A stretch of DNA of 64,000 nt from a virus: positions 1-64,000 of the IMG/VR virus record IMGVR_UViG_3300035180_002703; one strand, written 5' to 3'. The notes beneath the pieces were generated by a model that saw only the letters and a program-made list of their open reading frames with translations, was not told where the DNA came from and did not search any database. Both the position numbers and the translations under genes were made by a program. Below are positions 31,837-56,886 of this stretch, piece after piece (within the stretch, counting starts at the first letter, position 1; each line of letters begins with the position of its first letter).

Positions 31837-32634
31837 GTGGAGAAAGAGTACACGCAACAGTTGCTGGATCGCGCAGTGTGGAAACACCAGCGGTGGATGC
31901 GAGAGAAACGCTACGCGGCGCAGCGGCTCAATCTGTCAGACATTCAGCTGAACGGTCTCGATTTGTCGGGCCTTGACCTAAGCTACGCCATCTGCGTCAA
32001 CACGACTTTCAACAAGTGCAACCTGAAGGGCGTGAACCTGATGTTGGGTGTTGCGGCGCAGGCCCGATTCCTGGAATCGAATCTGCGAGGGGCTGATCTC
32101 TCCCATTCTATGCTGTCGGAGGCCACCTTCTGGGCGAGCATCCTGTCGGAGTCCGACTTTGGCAGCGCGAATTGCTCGGGTGCATGTTTTGACGAAGTAC
32201 TGCTTACCGGGGCGAGATTCAACAAGACCATCCTGTATGACGCAGTGTTCCGAAACGCTCACAACGTGCCGGAATCCGCTCGGGCGTTCTCCCGCATCAC
32301 TCCCGAAACCGGATCGTTCGAGATGTGGAAGAAATGCGACGGAGACGTGCTGGTGAGGCTTCTGGTTCCTGCGGATGCCCATCGGGAGAACGGGTGTTCG
32401 CGTCTACTGCGGGTCTCGAAAGCCGTTGTGCTGGAGATATTGGGGCCACACGGCGAAACGACGGTCAGAAACATGTCCGATCCAGATGTCGAGTACAAGG
32501 TCGGGGATGTTGTTACTCCGCGAGAAGGCTTCAACCCAGATTGGGAGAACGAGTATTCGGGAGGAATCCACGGATATCTGTCTCGCGCAGAGGCCGCATC
32601 ACCAGGTATTTACAAGATCGATGTTGACGAATGA
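31837..32634 (+). CDS. Pentapeptide-repeat protein with DUF5758-like C-terminal domain
   Basis: A(N/D)Lxx repeats; FEMWKKC..VRLLVPADA..LRVSKA..YKVG..GIHGYL. Confidence 0.85.
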   Translation: MEKEYTQQLLDRAVWKHQRWMREKRYAAQRLNLSDIQLNGLDLSGLDLSYAICVNTTFNKCNLKGVNLMLGVAAQARFLESNLRGADLSHSMLSEATFWASILSESDFGSANCSGACFDEVLLTGARFNKTILYDAVFRNAHNVPESARAFSRITPETGSFEMWKKCDGDVLVRLLVPADAHRENGCSRLLRVSKAVVLEILGPHGETTVRNMSDPDVEYKVGDVVTPREGFNPDWENEYSGGIHGYLSRAEAASPGIYKIDVDE

Positions 32635-33806: not shown

Positions 33807-34346
33807 ATGAACAAGGTCTCTCAAGAAGAAATGAAAGGAATCCTCCAGCGTCATAGTCTGTGGCTACTCACGAGCGCTGGAGGGGAGCGTGCTATGCTGG
33901 CGGGATGTGATTTGAGGGGTCTCGATCTATCGGAAGCGAACCTGGCATATGCCAACATGGCAGGCTGCATGCTCGATAATGCGAACCTTTCTCGCGCTAT
34001 GATGTCGTACGCAAACCTGGCCGACGCCACGCTGAGAGGGGTGAACGCCGTCGAGGCATCGTTCGATCGGGCCAACCTTTCTCACGCGATCCTGGCGCGG
34101 GCCGATCTGACGAATGCCAACCTGGAGTGGGCGATTTGTACGCAGACGGCATTCACCTACGCGAAGATGGATGGGATTCGGTTCTACGGCATCACGCTGG
34201 TTGGTGCATGGTTCATGGGAACGTCGGCTGTCGGCCATATGATAGAGGCTGCCAAGTATGATTTGAAGAACGCGCAGTGGACGCTCGACCGCATCGAAGA
34301 AGAGACCGAGAGACAGGCCAAACACGCACAGTTGTCGCAGTCGTAG
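33807..34346 (+). CDS. Pentapeptide-repeat protein
   Basis: ILQRHSLWL..GGERAML head, then ANLxx repeats. Confidence 0.9.
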   Translation: MNKVSQEEMKGILQRHSLWLLTSAGGERAMLAGCDLRGLDLSEANLAYANMAGCMLDNANLSRAMMSYANLADATLRGVNAVEASFDRANLSHAILARADLTNANLEWAICTQTAFTYAKMDGIRFYGITLVGAWFMGTSAVGHMIEAAKYDLKNAQWTLDRIEEETERQAKHAQLSQS

Positions 34347-34348
34347 CG

Positions 34349-34386
34349 TGCCCCAGTAAGCCGCCACCTTAGGGGGCGCATGGGCA
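34349..34386 (+). promoter_or_regulatory. Leader motif A copy 2
   Basis: CCCA-GTAAGC-CGCC-A-CC(TTAG)GG-GGCG-CA-TGGG, then AAGGAGG. Confidence 0.8.
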
Positions 34387-34398
34387 AGGAGGGGTGGG

Positions 34399-35079
34399 AT
34401 GACGAATAAGATGTCGCAGGAGAAGCTGGATCGGATTCTGGATGCACACGAGGCATGGCTGGGGAGGAAACCTGGAGGCAGAAGGGCTAGGCTGTGCGGA
34501 AAGAACATGTCGGGGCTGAACTTCGCGGGCCGTACGCTGAGGCACATCATCTTGGCAGACGCCGAACTGCACGGTGCGAACCTGTCCGGGGCCGATCTCG
34601 ACGCAGCGAATCTCAGTTGCGCGAACATGTGGAGGGTAAATGCAGAGCGAGCAACTTTCCGAGAGACGGACCTTTCTTGCGCCGATCTCTCAGGTGCGAG
34701 GCTGTTCGACGCCGATCTCGATACAGCGAATCTCAGTCACGCGAAGATGTGGGGTGCGAATGCGGAGCGGGCGGCTTTCCGAGAAGCGAACCTTTCTTGC
34801 GCCGATCTGCGGAAAGCGAACCTAGAAGGATCGGTGTTTACCCAGGCTAATCTGTCTGGAGCTCGCCTATCAGGTGCGCATATCGACGGCGCTAAGTGGA
34901 CGGACGCCGTCATGGCGATTGCGGATGTTCGCGATGTGGCTCCGACCGAGGAATTCCTGGATGCTTTTTACGATTGGAAGATATGTGTAGACAGTGCATA
35001 TACAACTTGCTGCCAGCGTTACGCAGTGGCGGTAGCCACCCAAACGAATGGCGCTGACGAAACGGAGGGGGAACAATGA
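34399..35079 (+). CDS. Pentapeptide-repeat protein
   Basis: ILDAHEAWL head; ADLSGANL repeats. Confidence 0.9.
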   Translation: MTNKMSQEKLDRILDAHEAWLGRKPGGRRARLCGKNMSGLNFAGRTLRHIILADAELHGANLSGADLDAANLSCANMWRVNAERATFRETDLSCADLSGARLFDADLDTANLSHAKMWGANAERAAFREANLSCADLRKANLEGSVFTQANLSGARLSGAHIDGAKWTDAVMAIADVRDVAPTEEFLDAFYDWKICVDSAYTTCCQRYAVAVATQTNGADETEGEQ

Positions 35080-36079: not shown

Positions 36080-36159
36080 TTGACAAACCCGAAGAAGACG
36101 GGATATAATATGTACGTAGAAAGCCGATAAGACGCTACCTGTTACGGAGCGCGCGGGCT
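36080..36159 (+). promoter_or_regulatory. sigma70 promoter plus leader motif A copy 3 (36122..36159)
   Basis: TTGACA-18-TATAAT; CCG-ATAAGA-CGCT-A-CC(TGTTAC)GG-AGCG-CG-CGG. Confidence 0.8.
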
Positions 36160-36872: not shown

Positions 36873-36930
36873 TCGGTCCAGAACCCCGGGGGGGCAGGCA
36901 GAACACCCCCCGGGGGAAGAATAGAAGGGG

Positions 36931-37004
36931 TTGACAAGCCGACTATCGTATGATATAATATGTACATAGTCAAGCCGATAAGCCGCCAACAAGAGGCGCA
37001 CGGC
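36931..37004 (+). promoter_or_regulatory. sigma70 promoter plus leader motif A copy 4 (36974..37004)
   Basis: TTGACA-17-TATAAT; GCCG-ATAAGC-CGCC-A-ACAAGA-GGCG-CA-CGGC. Confidence 0.85.
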
Positions 37005-37019
37005 GAAAGGAGAGGGAAC

Positions 37020-37328
37020 ATGAACAGCACCGAGGCTCCTATGACGCTCACCGCGCTGGCCGCCGATCAGGAGTGGAACCTGGTGGAGTCGCTCAAGGGC
37101 ATCGCTGACGGGCAGCGTGTTCCAGAGACCATCGACACTCTGGTTCGTCTCGCCGAGGAGTATCAGAAGTCCGCTCGCGATAAGCTGGCCGAATCGGAAA
37201 GGCTGAAGAAGTATCCTGTATCGGCGCACTTCCTCGCTCACGAGAAGGAATGCGACGCGCTGGATGACGCTCGGGTTGCCAAGGCGTACAACGACATGGT
37301 GGATAGGCTCACGAAGTACCTGCACTGA
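37020..37328 (+). CDS. Hypothetical helical early protein
   Basis: RBS AGGAG; shares LKGIA(D/E)GQ..ET...TL with 37438..37842. Confidence 0.65.
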   Translation: MNSTEAPMTLTALAADQEWNLVESLKGIADGQRVPETIDTLVRLAEEYQKSARDKLAESERLKKYPVSAHFLAHEKECDALDDARVAKAYNDMVDRLTKYLH

Positions 37329-37329
37329 C

Positions 37330-37394
37330 TGCCGAAACCGGCTTTCGGGCCGGTCTGCACCGGGCGGCTCCCGGCGCACTGAAGAGGCAAGCCG
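37330..37394 (+). ncRNA. Type II hammerhead ribozyme 1
   Basis: TGCC-GAAA-[CCGGCT TTCG GGCCGG]-TC^-[TGCACCGGG CGGCT CCCGGCGCA]-CTGAAGA-GGCA; predicted cleavage after C37355. Confidence 0.9.
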
Positions 37395-37423
37395 ATAAGT
37401 CGCCACCTTAGGGGGCGCAACGG
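37392..37423 (+). promoter_or_regulatory. Leader motif A copy 5
   Basis: CCG-ATAAGT-CGCC-A-CC(TTAG)GG-GGCG-CAA-CGG directly after hammerhead 1. Confidence 0.8.
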
Positions 37424-37437
37424 AGGGGAGGGGAGAA

Positions 37438-37842
37438 ATGGATGACGTTGGTAGTGGTGGCTCCGTCTGGAGCGAAACCGTCTGGAAGATGCCGATGACG
37501 CTGGAGCTCCTGGAAAGACAGGCGATCGGTGCGGAAAGCGCGGCGCAGGAACACTCCGAGATTGCCAAGAGGGCTACCAGCCGGGCGGAAGCGAAGAAGG
37601 CGCGAGAGGAAGCAGATTACCTGTACGAGCTGGCCGACGAATACCGAGGGCTCGCACGTGATCTGAAGGGGATCGCGGAAGGACAGACGCTGGAAGAAAC
37701 GGTGAAGACACTGCGCAGTCTATCGCGAAGGAAGACAGGTATCCAACGACACAGGCAGTTGAGCGACTATGAGGAGATGGCAGATATTCTGTCATTCTAC
37801 CTGCGAGGATATACGGGAGAGGAGGATCACAATGAACAGTGA
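37438..37842 (+). CDS. Hypothetical helical early protein
   Basis: RBS GGAGGGGG; partial paralogue of 37020..37328. Confidence 0.6.
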   Translation: MDDVGSGGSVWSETVWKMPMTLELLERQAIGAESAAQEHSEIAKRATSRAEAKKAREEADYLYELADEYRGLARDLKGIAEGQTLEETVKTLRSLSRRKTGIQRHRQLSDYEEMADILSFYLRGYTGEEDHNEQ

Positions 37843-38494
37843 AGACACCTGGGCCAAGTGCCATGTGGACGTGGCTAACGCCGCGCTCGGTATCGCCCGC
37901 GAATACGGGCATCCGTGGGCGCATAGCTCCGTGGTTCCTCAAGCTGGGGGGTGGGAGCCAGAGGACAAGCGACCCACGCTCGAAGAAATCAAGATGCACA
38001 TCCCGTGTCGGATCGCACGCGGCGTTCTCACTCCGCGCGTCTCCTACGACGAAAACGGTTGGGTGCTGAGATTCAAGACGCCGGACGGGCGCGCGACCAT
38101 CCAGGTGTCGCATGAGACGGACCGCGACACGGAGTATTCAGTCACTGTCTGGAGGTCAGACGGATCGTGGGCGCGAGGCACGAAGTCTGGGCATTTCATC
38201 ATGGTCGGGGCCGACGACACTCGCTGGGGTATGCGCCATATGAAGGCATGGCAGCGAGCGTGGCGTGCGATTGGCATCGAGCCGCCGGAGTTTCCCGGGG
38301 TTCTCCGCGCTGAGTGGGACCTGATCGTCGACGCAGACAGTCCATTGCCAACAGGCACCGAGGATATATCGGGGGCAACCGTCCAGATCATGCCCTCGGC
38401 GCTCTTGACGGGGAGGGACCTGCTCAAACTGGTGCAGTATGCACGACACGTTATCGTCCGGGATGACGACTACCGGGCGTATCCTCTGGCATAA
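37832..38494 (+). CDS. Early protein, 'AREYG...RAW' paralogue family
   Basis: ANAALGIAREYG...WGMRHMKAWQRAWRAIG..FP; similar to 50121, 51654, 52814, 49415. Confidence 0.7.
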   Translation: MNSEDTWAKCHVDVANAALGIAREYGHPWAHSSVVPQAGGWEPEDKRPTLEEIKMHIPCRIARGVLTPRVSYDENGWVLRFKTPDGRATIQVSHETDRDTEYSVTVWRSDGSWARGTKSGHFIMVGADDTRWGMRHMKAWQRAWRAIGIEPPEFPGVLRAEWDLIVDADSPLPTGTEDISGATVQIMPSALLTGRDLLKLVQYARHVIVRDDDYRAYPLA

Positions 38495-38497
38495 CGG

Positions 38498-38526
38498 TTG
38501 ACGGGATCGGCGTGATGGGATATAAT
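38498..38526 (+). promoter_or_regulatory. sigma70 promoter of the replication operon
   Basis: TTGACG-17-TATAAT. Confidence 0.8.
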
Positions 38527-38567
38527 AAGTGTGCCGATATGGCTAATCTGATGGGAGGGACATATGC

Positions 38568-38786
38568 ATGAAAGGCAGGCCACGAAGAGAGATGCAGAGT
38601 TGCGATGTTGCGCTCTGGGAGTACGGTGGAGTACGGGCGTTCGTTGAGGAGCTAGACGCCGAAGGAGTTCCTCGCCCGAAGATCATTCAGGCGATTTCGG
38701 AGGCGGCTCCAGACGCGAAGATTCCGAAGTCCGCTCAAACGATCGGTAACTGGATACGGTACTGGAAGAACCCCGATCGCGGCTAA
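38568..38786 (+). CDS. Small HTH-like DNA-binding protein
   Basis: GVPRPKIIQAI...SAQTIGNWIR; first gene after the promoter. Confidence 0.5.
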   Translation: MKGRPRREMQSCDVALWEYGGVRAFVEELDAEGVPRPKIIQAISEAAPDAKIPKSAQTIGNWIRYWKNPDRG

Positions 38787-38805
38787 CGAGAGAAGGAGGG
38801 GGGAA

Positions 38806-39072
38806 ATGCCGGACCTGGTGTTGCAAACGGGCGTCAAAGTTCCCGCTCGCGATGTTACAGAAGCTTGGGCCATGACCGTGCCCGGCGATGGCGCGGAGAT
38901 ACACGTCAGGCTGCGGGACCGCGCACCGTTCTGCTTGGCGTTCGCATCTGAGCTGAGAAGCGCGCCGATACATGACATGATCGAGAGGCTGACGGACTGG
39001 CTCCGCTCACCTCAAGGCGATTTCGACCTGGAGGCCGAATGGCGCGAGGCGGATACGCGCGCGGGGCTCTGA
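38806..39072 (+). CDS. Hypothetical protein
   Basis: RBS AAGGAGG. Confidence 0.6.
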   Translation: MPDLVLQTGVKVPARDVTEAWAMTVPGDGAEIHVRLRDRAPFCLAFASELRSAPIHDMIERLTDWLRSPQGDFDLEAEWREADTRAGL

Positions 39073-39084
39073 AAGGAGAAGCAC

Positions 39085-39411
39085 TTGACCGACGAATATG
39101 CGGGCCTTAGAATACGGCGGTACGAACGAAAGCGGGCTCGAAGGGAGAAATTCCTGGAGAACTCATGGCGCACGCTGATCGCAGTCGCAGTCCTGGCAGG
39201 CATCGCAGTGGAGTATCACAGGCTGCAGGTTCTGGATAAGCTCGCACAGTCGCCGGTGGTGGTTTACATGCCATCGGAGCGGAAGGCGATGCGCGAGGTT
39301 CGACCGCTCGCGAGCCGGGGGAGGCGCGTTGTTCGCGAGTCAAGCGATCCGCATTACAAGGGAATGTTGCCGGCATTGCCAGACCTGCCGGGGAGAGGAG
39401 AGGGAGAATGA
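39085..39411 (+). CDS. Hypothetical single-TM protein
   Basis: RBS AAGGAG; TLIAVAVLAGIAV. Confidence 0.55.
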   Translation: MTDEYAGLRIRRYERKRARREKFLENSWRTLIAVAVLAGIAVEYHRLQVLDKLAQSPVVVYMPSERKAMREVRPLASRGRRVVRESSDPHYKGMLPALPDLPGRGEGE

Positions 39412-40211
39412 GCGAGGCCGAGGAGAAACATGAGGCGGTGGGCTCCGCAGAGTGGGCCGCGAAGCGTTGCATCAAAATGCAGGGGGGTAAGTGGTACCTG
39501 CCAGTGGCTCCGCGCGTACAGTGGTTTAGAACGGTGCATCCCGACTGGGGTATCAGCACGTCCCTGATCGAGGGCGGCCACGAGGCGGGGTTCGCGACGG
39601 TGCAGGCGATCATCTACAACCCCGAGGGCCGGCTGCTCGCATCCGGGATGAAGACCGAGTCCAAGCATGACTTTCCCGCAGGGTGGGTCGAGAAGGCGGA
39701 GAGTGGCGCTGTGGGCCGGGCGCTGGCATTGCTCGGGTTCGGCACGCAGTTCACGCCGGAACTTGACGAAGCGCCGCGGATCGTCGATACTCCACGGCGT
39801 CCCGTCTCGGATCACGGAGGCCTGCCGGTGTCCACGAAGGTCACGGACAGCATCTGGGAGGGTGACGGACCCTGTCCGTTCTGCCATGCCAAACCTGGCA
39901 CGGGGCACGTCGAGGCGTGTCGATACATCGGAAAGTCGCCCGAGGAGGTGGACAAGGACATCGCGGCACGGCGATGGATCGCGGAGTTGGCGAAGCGCGG
40001 CTACACTGACAAAGAAAGCCGCGCGCGTGTTCTCCGCGACGTGTTGACATGGAAGGCCGGCGGGAAGGTCAACCCGCGAGTCCCTCCGCCGGTGCTTTCG
40101 ACTTACACTGCCGCCGACTTCAGGCTCGCGGTCGATAACCTGGAGGCCTACGAGGCGGTGCGGAACAAGACCGATCAGGCGCTCGCATCGAGCGCTGACT
40201 TCACGGATTAG
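39408..40211 (+). CDS. Putative Rad52/Sak-like single-strand annealing protein
   Basis: YLPVAPRVQWFR...VEKAESGAVGRALALLGFG; replication module context. Confidence 0.65.
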   Translation: MSEAEEKHEAVGSAEWAAKRCIKMQGGKWYLPVAPRVQWFRTVHPDWGISTSLIEGGHEAGFATVQAIIYNPEGRLLASGMKTESKHDFPAGWVEKAESGAVGRALALLGFGTQFTPELDEAPRIVDTPRRPVSDHGGLPVSTKVTDSIWEGDGPCPFCHAKPGTGHVEACRYIGKSPEEVDKDIAARRWIAELAKRGYTDKESRARVLRDVLTWKAGGKVNPRVPPPVLSTYTAADFRLAVDNLEAYEAVRNKTDQALASSADFTD

Positions 40212-40230
40212 ACATGCTACATAACTCGGT

Positions 40231-40271
40231 GAAACCCCGTCCGCCGCCGGTTCGTCGGGCGGGGTTTCTTT
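40231..40271 (+). terminator. Intrinsic terminator
   Basis: GAAACCCCGTCCG...CGGGCGGGGTTTCTTT. Confidence 0.65.
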
Positions 40272-40300
40272 CCCGCAGTGCGGGAGAAGGGAGGGTGGGT

Positions 40301-40621
40301 ATGCCTTGGTATAGGATGACCGCTAAACCGCGCTCTGCGAGCGAATCCTGGGTCTTTACGTGCCCTTCCTGCGGGCACGAGGCGTGGGCGGTTAGCGAGG
40401 AACTTCCTGGCTATACTCGCATCGAATGGGGCTGCATCAGCCCGGATTGCCCGGCGGGCGGTTCGCAGTGGATCGAGCACAAGAGGGAACGCGCGGTGGC
40501 GGCTCCGGAGGGGCGCTCGTGGGGCGCAGTCAACGTGGCGATTGTCGTTGCGGCCCTGGTCGCGTTCTGGTGGGGGTTCGTGCCCTGGGCCGTCGAAATG
40601 CTGGTCCGACTCTGGAAGTAG
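40301..40621 (+). CDS. Zn-ribbon + C-terminal TM protein (paralogue 1)
   Basis: CPSCG...EWGC....C; hydrophobic C-terminus. Confidence 0.65.
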   Translation: MPWYRMTAKPRSASESWVFTCPSCGHEAWAVSEELPGYTRIEWGCISPDCPAGGSQWIEHKRERAVAAPEGRSWGAVNVAIVVAALVAFWWGFVPWAVEMLVRLWK

Positions 40622-40646
40622 CTCTGCGAGGCAAAGGAGGGGGGAA

Positions 40647-41012
40647 ATGGGTTCTGAAGTGAGCCGGGAGCGGATGTCGTCTCAAGAACAGTCGATGTTG
40701 ACCGGCGTGGTTGATTTCGAACTATTCGAGCTCACCTGTCCGCGCTGCGGGGCCACGGCCGTTGCCATTGCCGAGTCGCGAGATGGCGGCGTATATGCCG
40801 AGTGGGATTGCTGCGACGACATGTGCGGGCTGCATGGGGGTATGTGGACGGAGGAGTGCTCGCGGGATCGTGGGCCGATGAAAACTATGCCGCCGGTGGC
40901 GATCATCACGCTTGCGAATCTGAGGCTGGCTGCGATAGCTATCGGGATATTGCTGGCGTTCTGCTTGCATTACAGCGGATTTCTTCACGCGCTGACTGCG
41001 GTGCTTCGATGA
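40647..41012 (+). CDS. Zn-ribbon + C-terminal TM protein (paralogue 2)
   Basis: CPRCG...EWDC....CG; hydrophobic C-terminus. Confidence 0.65.
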   Translation: MGSEVSRERMSSQEQSMLTGVVDFELFELTCPRCGATAVAIAESRDGGVYAEWDCCDDMCGLHGGMWTEECSRDRGPMKTMPPVAIITLANLRLAAIAIGILLAFCLHYSGFLHALTAVLR

Positions 41013-41401
41013 ACGAGAAGTCTTCTTCCGGTGGCTGGGAAGTCATCAGGTCCGCGATGGGCCGTGAGCTGGCCATGTTCAACGAGTACAGGCCGGCGAC
41101 GTTCGAGTCACATTCGCTTTTGCGACGTTGCCCGTATTGCGGGCATTTGTCCGACCTTTCCGTTAGGTGGCGTCCCGGGGGGGCCTACGTCGAATGGGAC
41201 TGCGAGCCGCGGTATTGCGGGCGACGCGGCTACGCATGGTGGAGGCGCAGGCCGCTGATCAGCAGGCTTCTTCGCAAGCTTCGGCGCGAGGGGATTACGC
41301 GCGATGACCTCAAGCGTCTCGGGGCAATCGCGGCAGAGGTCGCCTTCTGGCTTTGCTACGCTGCATGGATGGCATCACTACTTGCGAAACTACGGAGATA
41401 G
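41009..41401 (+). CDS. Zn-ribbon + C-terminal TM protein (paralogue 3)
   Basis: CPYCG...EWDC....CG; hydrophobic C-terminus. Confidence 0.65.
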   Translation: MNEKSSSGGWEVIRSAMGRELAMFNEYRPATFESHSLLRRCPYCGHLSDLSVRWRPGGAYVEWDCEPRYCGRRGYAWWRRRPLISRLLRKLRREGITRDDLKRLGAIAAEVAFWLCYAAWMASLLAKLRR

Positions 41402-41404
41402 AAA

Positions 41405-42361
41405 TTGGGCACGCTATCGGAAGGACTGCTGGCACGATTGAACGAACCTGTCCCGGCAGGTGCGCAGGAGCGATACCTGGAATGGCTCGACGCGGGGTTG
41501 TTCGCGCCGGTGCCGGAGATCGGGCCGTCGGAGCTGCGGGAATGGGTGAGACTGTCGATTACTCGGGTGAAAACGCTGGCATTCAAATTGGGCATGCTCT
41601 ACGCGTACGGCACACAGACGTTCGGCGAAGAGGTTAGACAGGTCGCGGAGGAAGCGGGCGTTAGCTTGCATACGATCGAGAACAACGCGTCGATCATTCG
41701 CAGGTTCGGTGGATCGCCGGAACTGCGGGCCATTGCGGCAAGCGACGGCATCACCACGCGGCATTTGGACGCGCTATGCGACCGACGCCTGGACGACTCG
41801 GAGCGGGTGGAGCTTGGCAAGACGATTGTCGATCGCGGGATGTCGAGCATTGCGGCTCGGGCGCTCGTTCGGGAATACGTCTCGGCGCGCGAGGATATCA
41901 AGGAATCGCCGGAATGGTCTCCGGGCGGGCCGTTCGACGCGTCGGCGGCGTCGAGGGCGGTGGACGCTGTCATCTCCTCCGCGAAGGCGCGCGATATCGC
42001 GTCGGTCCTTCTTGGCCTGCTCGATGACCGTCTGCCAGACTGGCGCGCGGAGTTCGGTATCGCTCGTGACGCTGACAAGTGCGACGCGCTGCAGGCGGCT
42101 ATGAGTGCCCTTCTGACGGCATACAAGGCGCATGGTGGGACGTTGGAGGATATCATGGCCGCCGATCCGACGATTGGCCGCCGGTGCGACTGGGTGTCGG
42201 AAATGACCGGGGAATGCATACCTGCCATCATCGAAGGCTATGCGCGCGGTGGTAGGACTGTGCTCGTAGACGTCGACGGATTTGACAGGGACCGCGGGCG
42301 CGCGCGTATCGTTCCGACCGAGGCTGTCCGTCTTGAGCTCACACGCAAAGGAGGCTCATAG
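41405..42361 (+). CDS. Hypothetical protein, possible HTH
   Basis: 318 aa; VRQVAEEAGVSLHTIEN. Confidence 0.55.
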   Translation: MGTLSEGLLARLNEPVPAGAQERYLEWLDAGLFAPVPEIGPSELREWVRLSITRVKTLAFKLGMLYAYGTQTFGEEVRQVAEEAGVSLHTIENNASIIRRFGGSPELRAIAASDGITTRHLDALCDRRLDDSERVELGKTIVDRGMSSIAARALVREYVSAREDIKESPEWSPGGPFDASAASRAVDAVISSAKARDIASVLLGLLDDRLPDWRAEFGIARDADKCDALQAAMSALLTAYKAHGGTLEDIMAADPTIGRRCDWVSEMTGECIPAIIEGYARGGRTVLVDVDGFDRDRGRARIVPTEAVRLELTRKGGS

Positions 42362-42362
42362 C

Positions 42363-42755
42363 ATGGTTGGTTCCCGTCGGATGAAGTACGGCAATAACCG
42401 GGTTCGGGTGGATGGGCAGTTGTTCGACTCTGTCGGAGAGTACGAGCATTGGAAGCATTTGCGGGAACGGGAGGCTGCCGGGGAGATCAGTGATCTGAAG
42501 CGACAGATGGCATTCGAGCTTGCTCCGTCACTTGTCCTCTGGGGTCGCAAGAAACCTGCATTGCGATACATCGCCGATTACGTGTACATGGAGAACGGCG
42601 AGCGTGTTGTCGCTGACTACAAGGGCGGGCCGCTGACGCCATTGTTTCGCGCGAAGGCGCATCTGCTGAAGGCGGTGCATGGCATCGATATCCTCATTGT
42701 GCGTGGTCGGGCCGATCGTCGCGGGAGGGGCGGAAATGAAGCGAATAACGCTTGA
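42363..42755 (+). CDS. DUF1064-family putative endonuclease
   Basis: KYGN..V.VDG..FDS..E, LKRQ..FEL, YIADYVY, VVADYKG. Confidence 0.85.
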   Translation: MVGSRRMKYGNNRVRVDGQLFDSVGEYEHWKHLREREAAGEISDLKRQMAFELAPSLVLWGRKKPALRYIADYVYMENGERVVADYKGGPLTPLFRAKAHLLKAVHGIDILIVRGRADRRGRGGNEANNA

Positions 42756-44127
42756 TCTGAATGATCTGGTTGTGCAGGGAAACATTCGGCGTTTGACGTT
42801 TGCCGAACGGGGCGCGTTCGACATATTATTGGAGCAGTATATCACGCGCGGAGGCTCGCTGCCGTTGGACGTGGACGAATGTTGCGATTTGGCCTCGGCG
42901 CGAACTGAGGAGGATCGGGCGGTAGTGAAGTCGACGCTGTCGGCGGCGTTTCGTGCGACCGATGATGGTTGGCGCAGCACCTGGGCCGATGGTCTCGCGG
43001 AGCGTGTCGGTCGGCGTTCGGACACCTATCGGGAGAATGCCGTGGCGCGTTGGTCGAAGTCGCGGAATGGCGTTGATATCGCTGATAATGCATGCAATAG
43101 CATCGGCGAAAATGCAATTGCAATGCAATTGCATCCGGAGAAATGCAATTGCATCGGCTCGAACGGGATCGGACCGAAAATCGCATCTGATAGTGCTGAT
43201 AATGGCGTTGATATCGCTGATAACTCATGCAATTGCATCGAATCACATGCAATTGGAATGCAATTGCATCAGGCGGAATGCAATTGCAATGCAATAGCAT
43301 CGGCGGGAATGCAATTGCATCAGGCGGAATGCAATTGCAATGCAATAGCATCAGATTGCATGAATTCGCATGGAATCGCGTCGAAAAGCGTCCAAGATGG
43401 CGATGATGACGCTGTTTCTGACGTTCCCCCCCCTTATAACCCCCCTATATACAAAGACTCTATACTAATACAAAGAGTCTTTGACTCTAAGAGACTCTCT
43501 ACCTCTGAAGACTCTATATCTAACAAAGAGTCTTGTAAGACTCTAAAAGACTATAAAGACGAAGAGAGTCTTGGCGTTGAGAAGAGAGATTGTACGAATT
43601 ACCACTCTTGCGCAAATCGCGTCGATTTTGCGCTTTTCGATGTCGAAAACGACGTTGAAGCACAGGGCGATGGCGTTGCGCAACCTGACGTCGCGAACAA
43701 CGCCACGACGCTGGACCCGGGGCACGGTGGTAGTAGTCGCTCGAAAGGATGGACCGCGGAGGAAGTGAAGGAGAAACAGTTGCGTGGCTTCAACAGGTTC
43801 TGGGAACTTCAACCCCGAAAGGTCGATAAGGCTCGGTGCTGGGCATGGTGGCAGCGCAACGTTCGCGAACGCGGCATCGCTCCGGCTATCATCAACGGCT
43901 TCAAGGCATATCTCGCCACGTGCAATCCGGAGGATAACTTCAAGTACGCGAAGCGACCCATAACCTGGCTCCGTGGTAGGTGCTGGGAGGACGAAGGGCT
44001 CGATCCTTCTGCTCTGGAGGCTGTTCTACCTGCTCGCGAACCCATCCGCGATCTCGGATTCGAGTATAGTGCAGAGAATCTCGAACGAACGCTCGGAATC
44101 TCGCTTCCACGCGCGAAAAGCGGCTAA
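42736..44127 (+). CDS. Replication initiator (YdaU/DUF1376-like N-terminus, lambda O-like layout)
   Basis: LTFAERGAFDILL..Y...GSLP; C-term FNRFW..PRKVDK, RPITWLRGRCWEDE; internal DNA repeats; precedes DnaB. Confidence 0.8.
   Translation: MKRITLDLNDLVVQGNIRRLTFAERGAFDILLEQYITRGGSLPLDVDECCDLASARTEEDRAVVKSTLSAAFRATDDGWRSTWADGLAERVGRRSDTYRENAVARWSKSRNGVDIADNACNSIGENAIAMQLHPEKCNCIGSNGIGPKIASDSADNGVDIADNSCNCIESHAIGMQLHQAECNCNAIASAGMQLHQAECNCNAIASDCMNSHGIASKSVQDGDDDAVSDVPPPYNPPIYKDSILIQRVFDSKRLSTSEDSISNKESCKTLKDYKDEESLGVEKRDCTNYHSCANRVDFALFDVENDVEAQGDGVAQPDVANNATTLDPGHGGSSRSKGWTAEEVKEKQLRGFNRFWELQPRKVDKARCWAWWQRNVRERGIAPAIINGFKAYLATCNPEDNFKYAKRPITWLRGRCWEDEGLDPSALEAVLPAREPIRDLGFEYSAENLERTLGISLPRAKSG
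43066..43575. repeat. Probable replication origin inside the initiator gene
   Basis: About eight TGCAATTGCA palindromes plus variants, duplicated AATGGCGTTGATATCGCTGATAA (43066, 43201), then an AT-rich tract with AGACTCT/AGAGTCT repeats. Confidence 0.7.
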
Positions 44128-44231
44128 TCCGGTTCGTTGTACTCGTTTCGGCTTAGAACGCGTCTGCGGGCATCCTGGCGCGATTACGGGGCATTGTGGA
44201 AGTTCGACGAAACTAGCATCGGAGGATTCGC

Positions 44232-45617
44232 GTGAGTAACAACCGTCTGCCGCCGCAAAGTCTGGAAATGGAACAGGCAGTCTGCGGCGCTATGCTGATC
44301 GACCCGGAAGCGGTCTGGACGTGCGCATCCATTCTCCGACAAACGGACTTCTACCGAGTCGAACATGGTACCGTCTTCGCAGCAGTCATCGCCGTCGCGT
44401 CGCGCGGGCAGGCGGTCGACGTGCTCACAGTCCAAGAAGAGCTTCGCTCGGCAGGCAATCTCGAAACTTGCGGAGGCGCTCCTTATCTGGTTCACCTCAC
44501 AGACTGTGTACCTTCTGCAGCTAACGCGGAATATTATGCTAAGGTCGTGGCGGAGAAAGCTACTCTGCGACGTATCTCGGACGCTGGCTCGCAGCTGCGT
44601 ACGATGGTCTATGCGGATTACGACGAAATCGGCGATGTCTGCGATAAGGCGTTTCGTACGGTCATGGACGCAGTTTCGCATCGTGATAGTCGCAACCCAT
44701 CAGACGCTCGTACGCTGGTCGAAGAAATTCTCGCGGAAGTCGATAAATTGCGCGAAACTGGAGAAATTCCGGGCCTTTCTACCGGATTCGCTGATCTCGA
44801 TACGGCAACGGCGGGGTTCTGCGGAGGTGAACTCGTTATCGTCGCAGGCGCTCCGTCTATGGGCAAATCGGCTTTCGCGCTCCAAATCGCTCGCCACGTC
44901 GCTCGCAAGCACGGGCCCGTCCTTATCGTCTCACTCGAAATGTCTGGACGGGAAATCATGCATCGACAACTTTCTATCGAATCTGGTATCGACCTGCTAC
45001 GATTGCGACGCGGAATGGTCTCGAAGGAAGAGCGAGAAACGCTAGATAGAGTCGGAAAGACTCTCTGCTCGGAACCGGTGCTCATTCACGATCGCGGCGT
45101 CGATTCGCTCGGCGCAATCCGACAAGCAGTTCGACGAATGAGGCCGGAACCGGTTATGGTGCTCGTCGATTACCTGCAAATCATGCGAGTCGAACGTGTC
45201 ACGGATAATCGGGCGCAGGACCTCGGCGCTATCTGCAGAGGCTTGAAACGTCTCGGCATGGATTACGAAATGCCAGTGGTCCTATTGTCACAACTTTCAC
45301 GCGAAATCGCAAGGCGAAACGATCGCAAACCGGTTATGTCTGATCTCCGAGACTCGGGCGCGATAGAACAGGACGCGGATATCGTGCTCGGATTGTATCG
45401 CGAGAATTACTACAAGTCACAAGGCGTTGTAACGCGAGACTCGCCACCGGAGGAAGCGGAAATCCTGATCATGAAACAACGCAACGGGCCGCGCGGTTCG
45501 GTTCGCGTTATGTTTCGACCGGCTACGGCGCAGTGGGCGTCTGGAATGTTTGGCGCGCGTGCTGACGCATACACGCGATATGATCAGACGCCAAACGATG
45601 AAGACTATACCGACTAG
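44232..45617 (+). CDS. dnaB: Replicative DnaB helicase
   Basis: PPQSLEMEQAVCG, GAPSMGKS Walker A, VDYLQ, LSQLSR, SDLRDSGAIEQDAD, KQRNGP. Confidence 0.97.
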   Translation: MSNNRLPPQSLEMEQAVCGAMLIDPEAVWTCASILRQTDFYRVEHGTVFAAVIAVASRGQAVDVLTVQEELRSAGNLETCGGAPYLVHLTDCVPSAANAEYYAKVVAEKATLRRISDAGSQLRTMVYADYDEIGDVCDKAFRTVMDAVSHRDSRNPSDARTLVEEILAEVDKLRETGEIPGLSTGFADLDTATAGFCGGELVIVAGAPSMGKSAFALQIARHVARKHGPVLIVSLEMSGREIMHRQLSIESGIDLLRLRRGMVSKEERETLDRVGKTLCSEPVLIHDRGVDSLGAIRQAVRRMRPEPVMVLVDYLQIMRVERVTDNRAQDLGAICRGLKRLGMDYEMPVVLLSQLSREIARRNDRKPVMSDLRDSGAIEQDADIVLGLYRENYYKSQGVVTRDSPPEEAEILIMKQRNGPRGSVRVMFRPATAQWASGMFGARADAYTRYDQTPNDEDYTD

Positions 45618-45628
45618 GAGGGGAAGTT

Positions 45629-45967
45629 ATGCAGGTACCGGAACTCTTCACGATCGCGCGCGAAGCGGGCGTGCGCGTTCGCTTGATGGATGGGCGGATC
45701 GTGTTCGGGCCGCGCGCGGCGTTCGAAGCTCTACCGGCGCATGTTCAAGATGGTCTGCGTGCAGCGAAAGCGATCTTTGCATTACACGTGGACGAAACCG
45801 GAGAGGTGACTGGCTATCGGCAGTGGGGGCCGTGCGACGACACGGCGCATCCGGAAGGTCTCGGGCGTTGTGCAGTCTGTTGGCGGATAGTTCACAATGA
45901 TGGCGTTTGTCGCATAGGCGATAACGGGGAATTCACGATCACTCACTCGGCTTGTTCTGGTACATAG
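45629..45967 (+). CDS. Hypothetical protein with C-terminal Cys/His cluster
   Basis: RBS GGAGG; CAVC...H..C. Confidence 0.55.
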   Translation: MQVPELFTIAREAGVRVRLMDGRIVFGPRAAFEALPAHVQDGLRAAKAIFALHVDETGEVTGYRQWGPCDDTAHPEGLGRCAVCWRIVHNDGVCRIGDNGEFTITHSACSGT

Positions 45968-45968
45968 A

Positions 45969-46080
45969 TGGTAACGTTTTGGTCAATTTCAGGCTGTTTG
46001 GTAAGGCTTTGGTAAGGCGATGGTCAAGTCCTGGTAAGTTTGGTAAGGCTTTGGTAAGCTTCTGGTAAGGCTTTGGTACC
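45969..46080 (+). repeat. Array of about ten TGGTAAG-core repeats, ~11-bp period
   Basis: TTTGGTAAGGC and variants in an intergenic region. Confidence 0.8.
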
Positions 46081-46165
46081 ATCCTCGTGCTGTTTCTCCT
46101 TGTACTATCCTCAACGTCCGATAATGTGCTTTACGCCATTCGAGAAACTTTTTTTCGAAGTGGGC

Positions 46166-46194
46166 TTGACAAGCTCGGGCCGTTATGGTAGTAT
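46166..46194 (+). promoter_or_regulatory. sigma70 promoter
   Basis: TTGACA-17-TAGTAT with TG; T-tract upstream. Confidence 0.75.
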
Positions 46195-46235
46195 ATATTC
46201 ATAACAAGGCGAAAGACGGAAGGGGGGCGAGGGGA

Positions 46236-46469
46236 ATGTGTTCAGTCGATGTAGAGGCGTTGCGGGATACCGTGAAGTGGCTTCGGGGGAGAAGTGAAGA
46301 TCATCTTGTAGTAGCTCGGAACTGGGATAACGACGTCGCATACTATAGCGCTAAGCCGGGCTACCGAGAAGAGGTTCAGGTGTATGCGGCGTTTCGGGAT
46401 TCGTTTCGCAAGCGATCGGCGGAGGTGTTGGAGATCGCGGAGATGGTCGAGAAAGCGATACTACCATGA
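46236..46469 (+). CDS. Small helical early protein
   Basis: RBS GAGGGG; first of six consecutive helical ORFs. Confidence 0.6.
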   Translation: MCSVDVEALRDTVKWLRGRSEDHLVVARNWDNDVAYYSAKPGYREEVQVYAAFRDSFRKRSAEVLEIAEMVEKAILP

Positions 46470-46486
46470 TGGAAGGAGGCAGGGGA

Positions 46487-46711
46487 ATGTCAGATGTGTT
46501 GCGTACGAGGCTGTTGGTAGGGAAACTGCGCGAGATTGGAACCGGTCTGCGAGAAAGCCAGGAGAAGTGTCCTGACAAGACGAACGCGATTGGTTGGGGT
46601 GATCGGGCGGATGGCGTGGAGGCTTTTGCTGACGCTCTGTCTAAGGCGCTGGACTCACACGCGCGATATGATGTGGAAACGGCGTTTGAGATTGTGTTTG
46701 GCGCGCGATAG
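46487..46711 (+). CDS. Small helical early protein
   Basis: RBS AAGGAGG. Confidence 0.6.
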   Translation: MSDVLRTRLLVGKLREIGTGLRESQEKCPDKTNAIGWGDRADGVEAFADALSKALDSHARYDVETAFEIVFGAR

Positions 46712-46714
46712 AAA

Positions 46715-46778
46715 GCCGAAACCGGTCTTCGGGCCGGTCTATGCAGGACGGCTACCTGCATACTGAAGAGGCAAGCTT
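46715..46778 (+). ncRNA. Type II hammerhead ribozyme 2
   Basis: GCC-GAAA-[CCGGTC TTCG GGCCGG]-TC^-[TATGCAGG ACGGCTA CCTGCATA]-CTGAAGA-GGC; predicted cleavage after C46739. Confidence 0.92.
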
Positions 46779-46811
46779 CTGCATAAGTCGGCACCTTCGG
46801 GGCCGCGGCAG
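46779..46811 (+). promoter_or_regulatory. Leader motif A copy 6
   Basis: CTGC-ATAAGT-CGGC-A-CC(TTCG)GG-GCCG-CG-GCAG directly after hammerhead 2. Confidence 0.8.
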
Positions 46812-46824
46812 GTTGGAGGTAGAT

Positions 46825-47133
46825 ATGACGTCGCAGGAGGAGTCTCGGGTGCGCCGTGTTCTGTCGGATTTATACTATGCTAGCAGTGAGGGGGAAGGAC
46901 TGGCGAAGCAGTGGGAAGAGTGGGCACATGAGGCCGAAACTAATCAGAACAAGTGGATATCTGCTGAAGCGAAGGCGAAGAAGGCAGAATACTGCAGGAA
47001 GATTGCGGGGGTTCATGCTATGACTGCGATGCATTTGGGCGGTATTGCGGATGCTATTGCGGGTGCTATCAACGCTGGTGCGCTTGACGCGCTGGAAGAC
47101 ATATTCGGCGCGGTTTACGGGGTTCGGGATTAG
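46825..47133 (+). CDS. Small helical early protein
   Basis: RBS GGAGGT. Confidence 0.65.
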   Translation: MTSQEESRVRRVLSDLYYASSEGEGLAKQWEEWAHEAETNQNKWISAEAKAKKAEYCRKIAGVHAMTAMHLGGIADAIAGAINAGALDALEDIFGAVYGVRD

Positions 47134-47150
47134 CTTTGGCGTTGTGCTAG

Positions 47151-47183
47151 GCGCATAAGTCGGCACCTATCGGGCCGCGGCGC
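47151..47183 (+). promoter_or_regulatory. Leader motif A copy 7
   Basis: GCGC-ATAAGT-CGGC-A-CC(TATC)GG-GCCG-CG-GCGC. Confidence 0.8.
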
Positions 47184-47199
47184 ATGGAGGGGCGAAGGA

Positions 47200-47454
47200 A
47201 TGTCTAAGGCGGAGCGGTTGCGGGGGCTAGTGTCGAAGTTGTACGAGATGGCGGATGGTGCGGGCGTTCGCGCGGCTTATAATCAAAGCTTGGCGAATAG
47301 GGAGCGGGAGTCTGAAGTGTGGGTTGCGCCGGAGTCGCGCGCGGCATTGGTCGCTATGTACCGGGCTCAAGCTGACGCTGCGGCGAATAGGAAGCTGGAG
47401 CTAGCATGGCTTGCTAATCAGGTCGAGCAGATACTGGATCAGGAGGGGGAATGA
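47200..47454 (+). CDS. Small helical early protein
   Basis: RBS; similar layout to neighbours. Confidence 0.65.
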   Translation: MSKAERLRGLVSKLYEMADGAGVRAAYNQSLANRERESEVWVAPESRAALVAMYRAQADAAANRKLELAWLANQVEQILDQEGE

Positions 47455-50023: not shown

Positions 50024-50112
50024 TTGACAAGCTCTGTCGAGTGTGATATAATATGTGTGCAGTTGGACGGGGGGCCGATAAGTCGCCATTGCCAGTCTGG
50101 CAGGCGCGCGGT
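50024..50112 (+). promoter_or_regulatory. sigma70 promoter plus leader motif A copy 9 (50074..50112)
   Basis: TTGACA-17-TATAAT; GCCG-ATAAGT-CGCC-A-T-TGCC(AGTCT)GGCA-GGCG-CG-CGGT. Confidence 0.85.
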
Positions 50113-51570: not shown

Positions 51571-51602
51571 TGGGGCGCAGGTTCGGGCGGGGTGCTGGTA
51601 GT

Positions 51603-52813: not shown

Positions 52814-53203
52814 ATGAAAATGGACGCTCTGCAGCAGGTTCGCGAAGCATGGGCCGGTCTGCCGTACCTGGTGAAGGCGCGCGCGGGCGCGGTGGCGGCA
52901 GTGTTCAACGTCGACGAGCCTTCTGACTATGCGTTTGTCGGTTCAGACGGTGCCTATGGCTGGTCGTGTGCGGTAGTTCCGAGCGGGCTTTCTGTTCTCA
53001 TTCGTTCCCGGGCGTCCGGTATGCTCCTGGTCGTTACTGTGTACAACGAGGAAGGGCAGGCTATCACGGCGTCGATCGGAGAGGACATGTTCGAAACTAC
53101 AACGATCGGTACGGAGTGGGGGCCGCGGCAAGCGGCGCTTTGGAATCAGGTTTGGGCGGTTCTCGGATACCGTATGCCGTTTCCTGTTCCCGTGAAGTGC
53201 TAG
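52814..53203 (+). CDS. Early protein, 'RAW' paralogue family
   Basis: AWAGLP...WGPRQAALWNQVWAVLGYRMPFP. Confidence 0.7.
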   Translation: MKMDALQQVREAWAGLPYLVKARAGAVAAVFNVDEPSDYAFVGSDGAYGWSCAVVPSGLSVLIRSRASGMLLVVTVYNEEGQAITASIGEDMFETTTIGTEWGPRQAALWNQVWAVLGYRMPFPVPVKC

Positions 53204-53249
53204 GCGTGCAAGGGCCGGGCGGGGCGCAAGCTCCGCTCGGCTTGCAGGT

Positions 53250-56580: not shown

Positions 56581-56610
56581 TTGACAGTTTCGCGGGTTAT
56601 TATCTATAAC
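56581..56610 (+). promoter_or_regulatory. Candidate sigma70 promoter upstream of the terminase genes
   Basis: TTGACA-18-TATAAC. Confidence 0.55.
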
Positions 56611-56886
56611 ACGGCGAATCTGCTGGTACGCCGTGTCCGTGCGCCGTAGCTTATCGGCGCGTATGATATAGGCGGAAGGTCGTACTACTTGCGGTCTTCC
56701 GCCATTCTTTGGGGAGCATAGGGAGTAAGGGAGCATGGGCAGGGAGCGTCGGAATCTCTCGGCGGTCGAATTGGAGCAGGAACGGCGGGAGCGGGAGAGG
56801 GAGCGAAGGGAGCGGGAACGGCGCAGGAGTCGGCGCAGTAAGCGTCGCGGGTGGATGGATTCGGCGCAGTATAGGGAGTATGTCTG

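Follow-up and report, generated by a model that had tools for sequence, protein, structure and literature searches.

Two type II hammerhead ribozymes and a recurrent structured leader RNA between early genes of a phage from IMG/VR

The DNA analysed here, referred to as the window, comprises 64,000 nucleotides (nt) of the virus record IMGVR_UViG_3300035180_002703 (positions 1 to 64,000; the full record has 74 kb), and coordinates are window positions unless a related locus is named. Its early rightward region contains two genuine-looking type II hammerhead ribozymes, HH1 (37330..37394) and HH2 (46714..46777), each with a 3' pseudoknot tail and each followed directly by a copy of motif A, a covarying RNA fold of about 45 nt. 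They are the only hammerheads in the 74-kb record, and both are located on the plus strand between plus-strand genes. An earlier description made from the letters alone (the sequence-only reading) had treated ribozyme and motif A as one fused, possibly switchable cassette, which cuts a polycistronic early mRNA into units beginning with motif A. The evidence presented below supports the ribozymes and favors motif A as a separate leader module.

All features of the two loci are on the plus strand. The transcription unit of HH1 starts with a consensus sigma-70 promoter (36931..36959; TTGACA-17-TATAAT with TG, a 12/12 match), followed by motif A copy 4 (36969..37013; 32.9 bits with R1, one of our motif A models), the promoter-proximal leader of a 102-amino-acid (aa) early gene (37020..37328). 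The stop codon of this gene is 2 nt before HH1. Downstream of the ribozyme are motif A copy 5 (37386..37432; 43.3 bits, supported by pair counts) and a 134-aa early gene (37438..37842, ATG at 37438). In copy 5, the outer helix P1 pairs 37392-37394 with 37421-37423, the inner helix P2 is G37399-C37418 with the bulged A37405, the loop is UUAG, and the Shine-Dalgarno (SD) sequence occupies 37424-37434. The unit of HH2 is preceded by a promoter at 46166 and includes a small early gene of 74-81 aa (46466..46711), whose TAG (46709-46711) is 3 nt before the ribozyme. Motif A copy 6 follows (46774..46820; 40.7 bits and pair counts; P1 46779-46782 with 46808-46811, P2 with G46787-C46806, bulged A46793, loop UUCG, SD 46815-46819), then a second 102-aa early gene (46825..47133, ATG at 46825) and motif A copy 7 (47146..47192; 44.1 bits), which has neither promoter nor ribozyme upstream. 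No Pfam or PHROG family was found for the 134-aa gene or either 102-aa gene, and no informative one for any protein beside the ribozymes or downstream of motif A, here or in the unrelated contigs described below.

Both ribozymes have the type II permutation: stems I and III are capped by loops, and stem II is open and short (GCC/GGC). In HH1, stem II joins U37330-C37333 to G37386-A37389, G12-A14 correspond to 37334-37336, CUGAAGA to 37379-37385, and C17 to 37355. Stem III (37337-37354) carries a UUCG loop, stem I (37356-37378) has the loop CGGCU (37365-37369), and the 3' tail is AGCCG (37390-37394). In HH2, the stem II strands are G46715-C46717 and GGC (46770-46772), the core consists of GAA (46718-46720) and CUGAAGA (46763-46769) with C17 at 46739, stem III (46721-46738) is closed as cUUCGg, stem I (46740-46762) has the loop ACGGCUA, and the tail is AGCU (46774-46777). 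All core nucleotides are intact in both copies (CUGAAGA, GAAA, the A15.1-U16.1 pair and C17), and cleavage is predicted at C37355/U37356 and C46739/U46740. These assignments rest on alignments from cmscan against Rfam 15 (4227 families) and on the minimum-free-energy fold, which is the hammerhead for each isolated element (z -1.9 for HH2). They agree with the sequence-only reading as to the full core, the UUCG-capped stem III, the differing but paired stem I, the start 2-4 nt past a stop codon (the stops end at 37328 and 46711, leaving 2-3 nt), the motif A and ribosome-binding site (RBS) directly downstream, and the two cut residues. The covariance-model scan that it had named as a check gave a divided result. 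HH1 scored 38.7 bits with the type II family RF02276, above the gathering score of 37 bits (E 2.5e-4 for the whole window and all families), and HH2 scored 31 bits, below that threshold (E 0.026 window-wide, 1.2e-4 locally).

The complementarity between loop I and the 3' tail, which had also been noted, is present in both copies as a pseudoknot of 5 base pairs (bp) in HH1 (CGGCU/AGCCG) and 4 bp, one of them G-U, in HH2 (GGCU/AGCU). This pseudoknot is a hallmark of the type II family, not a peculiarity of HH1 and HH2. When the two ribozymes are aligned with the eight of five related records (described below), both partners vary at five pairs of stem I and at one of the pseudoknot, and 91% of the cells are paired, as against 84% in shuffled alignments; none of 500 shuffles attains the observed value. 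The possibility that the elements are inactive relics or chance look-alikes, the intergenic RNA being processed, if at all, by host RNases, would agree with the low score of HH2 and with a core substitution in one relative. It appears extremely improbable, since every core position is intact in both copies, stem I is wholly different in sequence between HH1 and HH2 with its pairing kept, the pseudoknot pair 42-65 covaries (CG in five copies and UA in the other five), and the E-values are small for a search of 64 kb against all families.

The position of the ribozymes is shared by many other phage hammerheads. A pattern scan of IMG/VR for this hammerhead lineage returned 101 stretches, from which 100 distinct ribozymes with enough flanking sequence were analysed. 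A stop triplet occurs no more than 12 nt upstream in 94 of the 100 (control 26%). In 83, the next 70 nt contain an SD with a start codon (control 19%), and the median distance from ribozyme end to start codon is 28 nt. Placement after stop codons and before RBSs is therefore generic for phage type II hammerheads. Motif A follows only seven of these 100 ribozymes, and the remaining 93 join the RBS directly without it.

The carriers of motif A in this set are the loci L014, L031, L058, L074, L095 and L102, which belong to five records whose proteins are 30-94% identical to those of the window. The five records hold eight hammerheads, seven of which directly abut motif A, so that the adjacency which the sequence-only reading had proposed to look for in related phages does recur. 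The eighth (L058:427-495, minus strand) is followed by a terminator hairpin, a consensus promoter and only then motif A; it is thus found where a transcription unit ends, instead of ahead of an RBS.

These neighborhoods bear on the question of which cleavage product matters. In one explanation, the ribozymes serve the upstream message by giving it a hairpin-capped 3' end with a cyclic phosphate, in place of a terminator or processing hairpin, and the downstream 5' end is a by-product. Both ribozymes of the window follow the first small gene or genes after a promoter (36931 and 46166), in L095, L102 and L031 the hammerhead stays with an upstream 69-aa gene while the downstream gene changes, and homologous genes in L102 and L031 have a plain hairpin at the position of the hammerhead. 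The terminator and new promoter behind the L058 ribozyme likewise suggest that selection may act on the 3' end of the upstream message instead of the downstream 5' end. However, the SD and start codon close behind 83% of similar hammerheads (median 28 nt) argue that the downstream end matters too, and L074 and L102 appear to share a hammerhead and a downstream 83-aa gene while the first residues of their upstream genes differ (from unaligned reading). The upstream explanation is unlikely; the upstream 3'-end and downstream 5'-end roles do not exclude each other.

Motif A occurs 13 times in the phage according to model R1, always on the plus strand, from 31783 to 53297. Its outer part consists of the helix P1 of about 4 bp and an internal loop R-U-A-A; the inner helix begins with a G-C pair and a single bulged base, continues over four pairs to an invariant bulged A, and finishes in CC/GG, and the terminal loop is variable (4-9 nt). 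In the alignment, 94% of the cells are paired, compared with 75% in shuffles, none of 500 shuffles attains this value, and a shift of the partners by a single column makes the signal collapse. Both partners vary at each of the four pairs of P1 and at two of P2, and G-U pairs occur. In the 12 copies that were read, the 3' strand of P1 stops 1-4 nt ahead of the SD. No copy matched any Rfam 15 family in the window at E values up to 5, and a 91-nt stretch searched at E values up to 10 also gave no match.

The upstream context of motif A is varied. Seven of the 13 copies (31783, 36118, 36969, 48986, 50069, 51139 and 52764) come just after near-consensus sigma-70 promoters of the type TTGACA-N17/18-TATAAT, which bears out the earlier description of motif A as a leader just downstream of consensus promoters; in these, P1 starts about 6-17 nt from the probable transcription start. 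In the two copies that follow hammerheads, P1 starts 36 and 39 nt past the cut. The distance of 36-40 nt given by the sequence-only reading is therefore correct, and the similarity to the promoter-proximal copies that it drew from this distance does not hold. At the remaining four copies (34347, 47146, 51599 and 53246), a stop codon or a hairpin precedes the motif and nothing resembles a promoter; no Rfam ribozyme of another class was found upstream of these four or of the motif A copy L102c. Because these copies have neither promoter nor ribozyme, a nearby 5' end is common yet not required for motif A. Directly upstream of the copy at 53246 is a G+C-rich hairpin of about 18 bp (53190-53245, plus strand; z -2.3), possibly a processing site or a terminator without U tract.

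Several other identities for motif A were considered and rejected. A T7-like or sigma-70 promoter or a DNA operator does not fit, as P1 varies yet remains complementary, G-U pairs occur, the orientation follows transcription, and the promoters are located upstream. The bulge and loop positions do not match an S8-site mimic, a k-turn or domain 5 of a group II intron, as judged by eye. A lambdoid nut site is contradicted by the loop, which varies in sequence and in length (4-9 nt), by the lack of a boxA-like block, and by 13 copies that are each tied to an SD.

Motif A was also found in contigs unrelated to the window: L105, L119 (three times), L121, L125/L126 (twice), L133, L134, L136, L147 and L152. 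Over the motif stretch these contigs range from 37 to 69% G+C; an SD and ATG always follow the motif closely, and in many cases a promoter of the TTGACA/TATAAT type lies a short way upstream of it. An exact motif A pattern run over IMG/VR retrieved nothing, and a looser pattern did find the motif. When a loose pattern was run over genome contigs, 80 loci were listed for 120 matching stretches, and among the loci listed only L152, a contig of a Clostridia metagenome-assembled genome, contained a convincing full motif; L162 was rejected because it is inside an apparent coding sequence. A scan of nine viral loci of this unrelated set found no hammerhead (L152 was not scanned). The motif A models A1 and R1 were built from 30 instances, 10 of whose seed rows were chosen by eye partly for P1 pairing; the phage group of the window alone repeats the pairing pattern, and the model finds further copies outside the seed. 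The invariant bases, the fixed position beside the SD and the occurrence in unrelated phages suggest a specific partner of motif A at translation initiation.

One of these contigs, the A+T-rich phage contig L105 with a single motif A copy, also carries a full ROOL RNA (L105:1247-1811, minus strand, 320 bits) flanked by tRNA genes. In the window, a candidate small RNA of about 95 nt was noticed at 56581-56709 (plus strand), with the promoter TTGACA-18-TATAAC and a fold of z -2.5. The stem and loop of its hairpin carry reverse complements of the motif A arms (GCTTATCGGC, CCGTGCGCC), its loop UAGCUUAU could pair as antisense with AUAAGC, which is conserved in motif A, and a 14-bp terminator hairpin with AUUCUU comes next. 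It matches the motif A copies at 36118, 36969, 37386 and 50069 over 9-10 nt. This candidate was not found in the five relatives or in the partial loci of the other motif A phages.

A further question is whether hammerhead and motif A form one unit. At HH1 the earlier observation is accurate: the tail AGCCG overlaps P1, and bases 37392-37394 are needed by both pseudoknot and P1. As a general feature, however, the competition of the two folds was not borne out. Tail and P1 overlap by 3 nt at HH1 and by 1 nt at L014c and L074c, and there is no overlap at the other six of the nine junctions (HH2, L095, L058, L102b, L014b and L074b). The linker from tail to P1 varies from 0 to 5 nt, and the spacing of hammerhead and motif A is not conserved.

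A coupled switch, in which leader folding or a bound factor would control cleavage, or cleavage would control exposure of the RBS, could draw on the HH1 tail (37390-37394), which includes the entire 5' strand of P1, and on the 1-nt overlaps in L014c and L074c. Because cleavage leaves loop I and tail together on the 3' product, the two folds would go on competing afterwards. However, the overlap is missing at HH2 and five other junctions with their variable linkers, P1 of HH1 has only 3 bp, the joined regions fold without a stable alternative (z +0.9 and +1.0), and the 3' strand of P1 is transcribed only about 30 nt after the point at which the pseudoknot can already form. Such a switch is very unlikely.

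Comparison of related loci gives direct information about how these parts are exchanged. L095 (1730-2160, minus strand) and L102 (11320-12085, plus strand) are nearly identical from the promoter across motif A and the 69-aa gene as far as the hammerhead, beyond which they diverge: in L102, a cassette of 340 nt is inserted exactly between the ribozyme and the motif A copy that follows it in L095. This cassette consists of a motif A copy (A'), a hairpin and, between them, the 83-aa gene. The leader is therefore linked to the gene downstream of it and the ribozyme to the gene upstream, and motif A may act as a recombination boundary for early-gene cassettes, since that of L102 is bounded by motif A copies. 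A similar picture is given by a gene family with the N-terminus EQVW, which always has motif A; L014, L074 and L095 have a hammerhead upstream of it, the window copies at 50069 and 52764 have a promoter, and in L031, L102 and at 51599 there is either a hairpin or no element.

Thirteen of the roughly 24 early-region intergenic gaps of at least 45 nt carry motif A (by a rough gene call), and the chance that both ribozymes would land beside it is p ~0.28. In the simplest reading, hammerhead and motif A are separate modules whose two positional rules meet in short spacers: they touch because one sits after stops and the other before RBSs, in spacers that are very short. The gene cassette would then consist of leader and gene, with interchangeable separators. 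Arguments against a fused or switchable unit are the mostly absent overlap, the variable spacing, the cassette insertion, the four of 13 copies with neither promoter nor ribozyme, the p value of ~0.28, and the 93 of 100 similar hammerheads without motif A.

Taken together, the ribozymes most likely divide polycistronic early RNA at the borders of cistrons, the role that Perreault et al. suggested in 2011 for prophage hammerheads. The full explanation, in which two functional type II hammerheads do so in the early rightward region of this uncultured phage and motif A is a separate leader module, is judged to be probable. Four observations weigh against it. The score of HH2 falls below the gathering score. 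Nine of the group's ten hammerheads directly abut motif A, as would also be expected of a functional unit, although these junctions are not independent counts because many are homologous. The hammerhead at L074:8077-8145 (plus strand) has a U4-to-C change in the core (CCGAUGA) at a score that is still 43.6 bits; not every copy of the group need therefore be active, and this one may be slowed or inactive. The fourth is the terminal position of the L058 ribozyme. Within the cassette proposed by the sequence-only reading, the predicted cutting of early mRNA into units that start shortly before motif A is supported by the complete ribozymes and the recurrent layout, and the promoter-like spacing and the fusion are not.

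In the proposed mechanism, each ribozyme would fold during transcription and cut shortly after a small promoter-proximal gene has ended in its stop codon. The stem III hairpin and a 2',3'-cyclic phosphate would then form the 3' end of the upstream message, and the downstream message would start with a 5'-hydroxyl, its first nucleotide already paired in the stem I hairpin. Only the type II permutation would give hairpins at both new ends, with no more than the 3-4 bp of stem II to be melted for release. In bacterial mRNA, 5'-terminal hairpins and ends other than monophosphates delay the decay that depends on RNase E, and 3' hairpins hold back exonucleases; by these rules both cleavage products would have protected ends. 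The cut would uncouple neighboring cistrons in stability and translation. Motif A would serve as the standard structured leader of about a third of the early genes, 1-4 nt before the SD, with a promoter, a hammerhead, a hairpin or a bare stop codon as its upstream neighbor, and the order of ribozyme, hairpin leader and RBS would work like the synthetic insulator RiboJ. A more far-reaching form of this idea holds the arrangement to be a natural counterpart of RiboJ and motif A a new phage element of translation initiation with wide occurrence, recognized either by a conserved factor of the host or by an antisense RNA of the phage (candidate 56616-56709), with promoter, ribozyme and hairpin interchangeable and, at HH1, leader folding tied to the state of the ribozyme. 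Taken as a whole, this form is distinctly doubtful.

The surroundings and origin of the locus can be described briefly. Three pentapeptide-repeat proteins are encoded in the early region (33807-35079 and 31837-32634, plus strand), one of them with DUF5758 and two preceded by motif A. Between 52000 and 56000, the G+C content rises to 0.67 with a strongly negative AT skew, and long open reading frames have no family matches. In a read-archive lookup, the reads matching 36900-38400 came only from DNA runs of sediment and microbial-mat metagenomes, and no RNA run was listed for this stretch. Positions 36900-47300 had no megablast match among GenBank phages, and a search for related loci with the DnaB helicase as query gave no relative.

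Intergenic phage hammerheads have been on record since 2011, and HH1 and HH2 add two good members to a well-known class. What is new is a conserved, uncatalogued leader common to promoter-driven, ribozyme-driven and internal cistrons, together with comparative evidence for parts swapped as modules. Motif A is of interest in its own right as an uncatalogued structured RNA across unrelated phages. Hundreds of bacterial and phage hammerheads have roles that are largely untested so far, and this phage group offers a clean natural test: because one and the same leader, with related genes behind it, has a promoter, a ribozyme, a hairpin or no such element ahead of it, the effect of self-cleavage on stability and translation is measurable against built-in controls. 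The layout also mirrors RiboJ, a widely used synthetic-biology part.

In comparison with known systems, HH1 and HH2 show no structural difference from the type II hammerheads of RF02276: the core, the permutation (stem II of 3-4 bp) and the pseudoknot of 4-5 bp are the same, with HH2 at 31 bits against the cut-off of 37. A pseudoknot between loop I and the 3' tail defines most type II hammerheads; tandem hammerheads from three bacterial genomes cleave during in vitro transcription, one of them also in vivo, and for clustered prophage hammerheads the suggested role was the division of long phage transcripts into mRNAs of gene length (Perreault et al. 2011, PMC3088659). The arrangement in the window resembles these prophage clusters, which have several ribozymes per co-directional phage operon between small genes of varying identity: here two intergenic hammerheads are found among co-directional early genes, and the layout recurs in five related records and 100 other contigs. 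It differs in that a conserved structured leader, of a kind that paper does not describe, follows the ribozyme, and in that this leader is also used downstream of promoters and before genes without ribozyme.

RiboJ, in which the sTRSV hammerhead is joined to a hairpin of 23 nt, increases the amount of transcript about 2-fold and that of protein 2-10-fold (PMC6206723). The order of hammerhead, hairpin and RBS is the same as in the window, and cleavage strips the upstream context and leaves a leader bearing a hairpin. RiboJ, however, is engineered from a plant satellite RNA ribozyme and an arbitrary hairpin, whereas the phage combines a natural type II hammerhead with a hairpin that has invariant bases (UAAG, the bulged A and CC/GG) and an outer helix; the analogy is functional only. 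In phage T7, early mRNA is cut by host RNase III at long hairpins between cistrons, which gives separately stable messages. The cut between cistrons of a polycistronic early transcript is made in T7 by a host enzyme and would be made in the present phage, as its ribozymes predict, autocatalytically.

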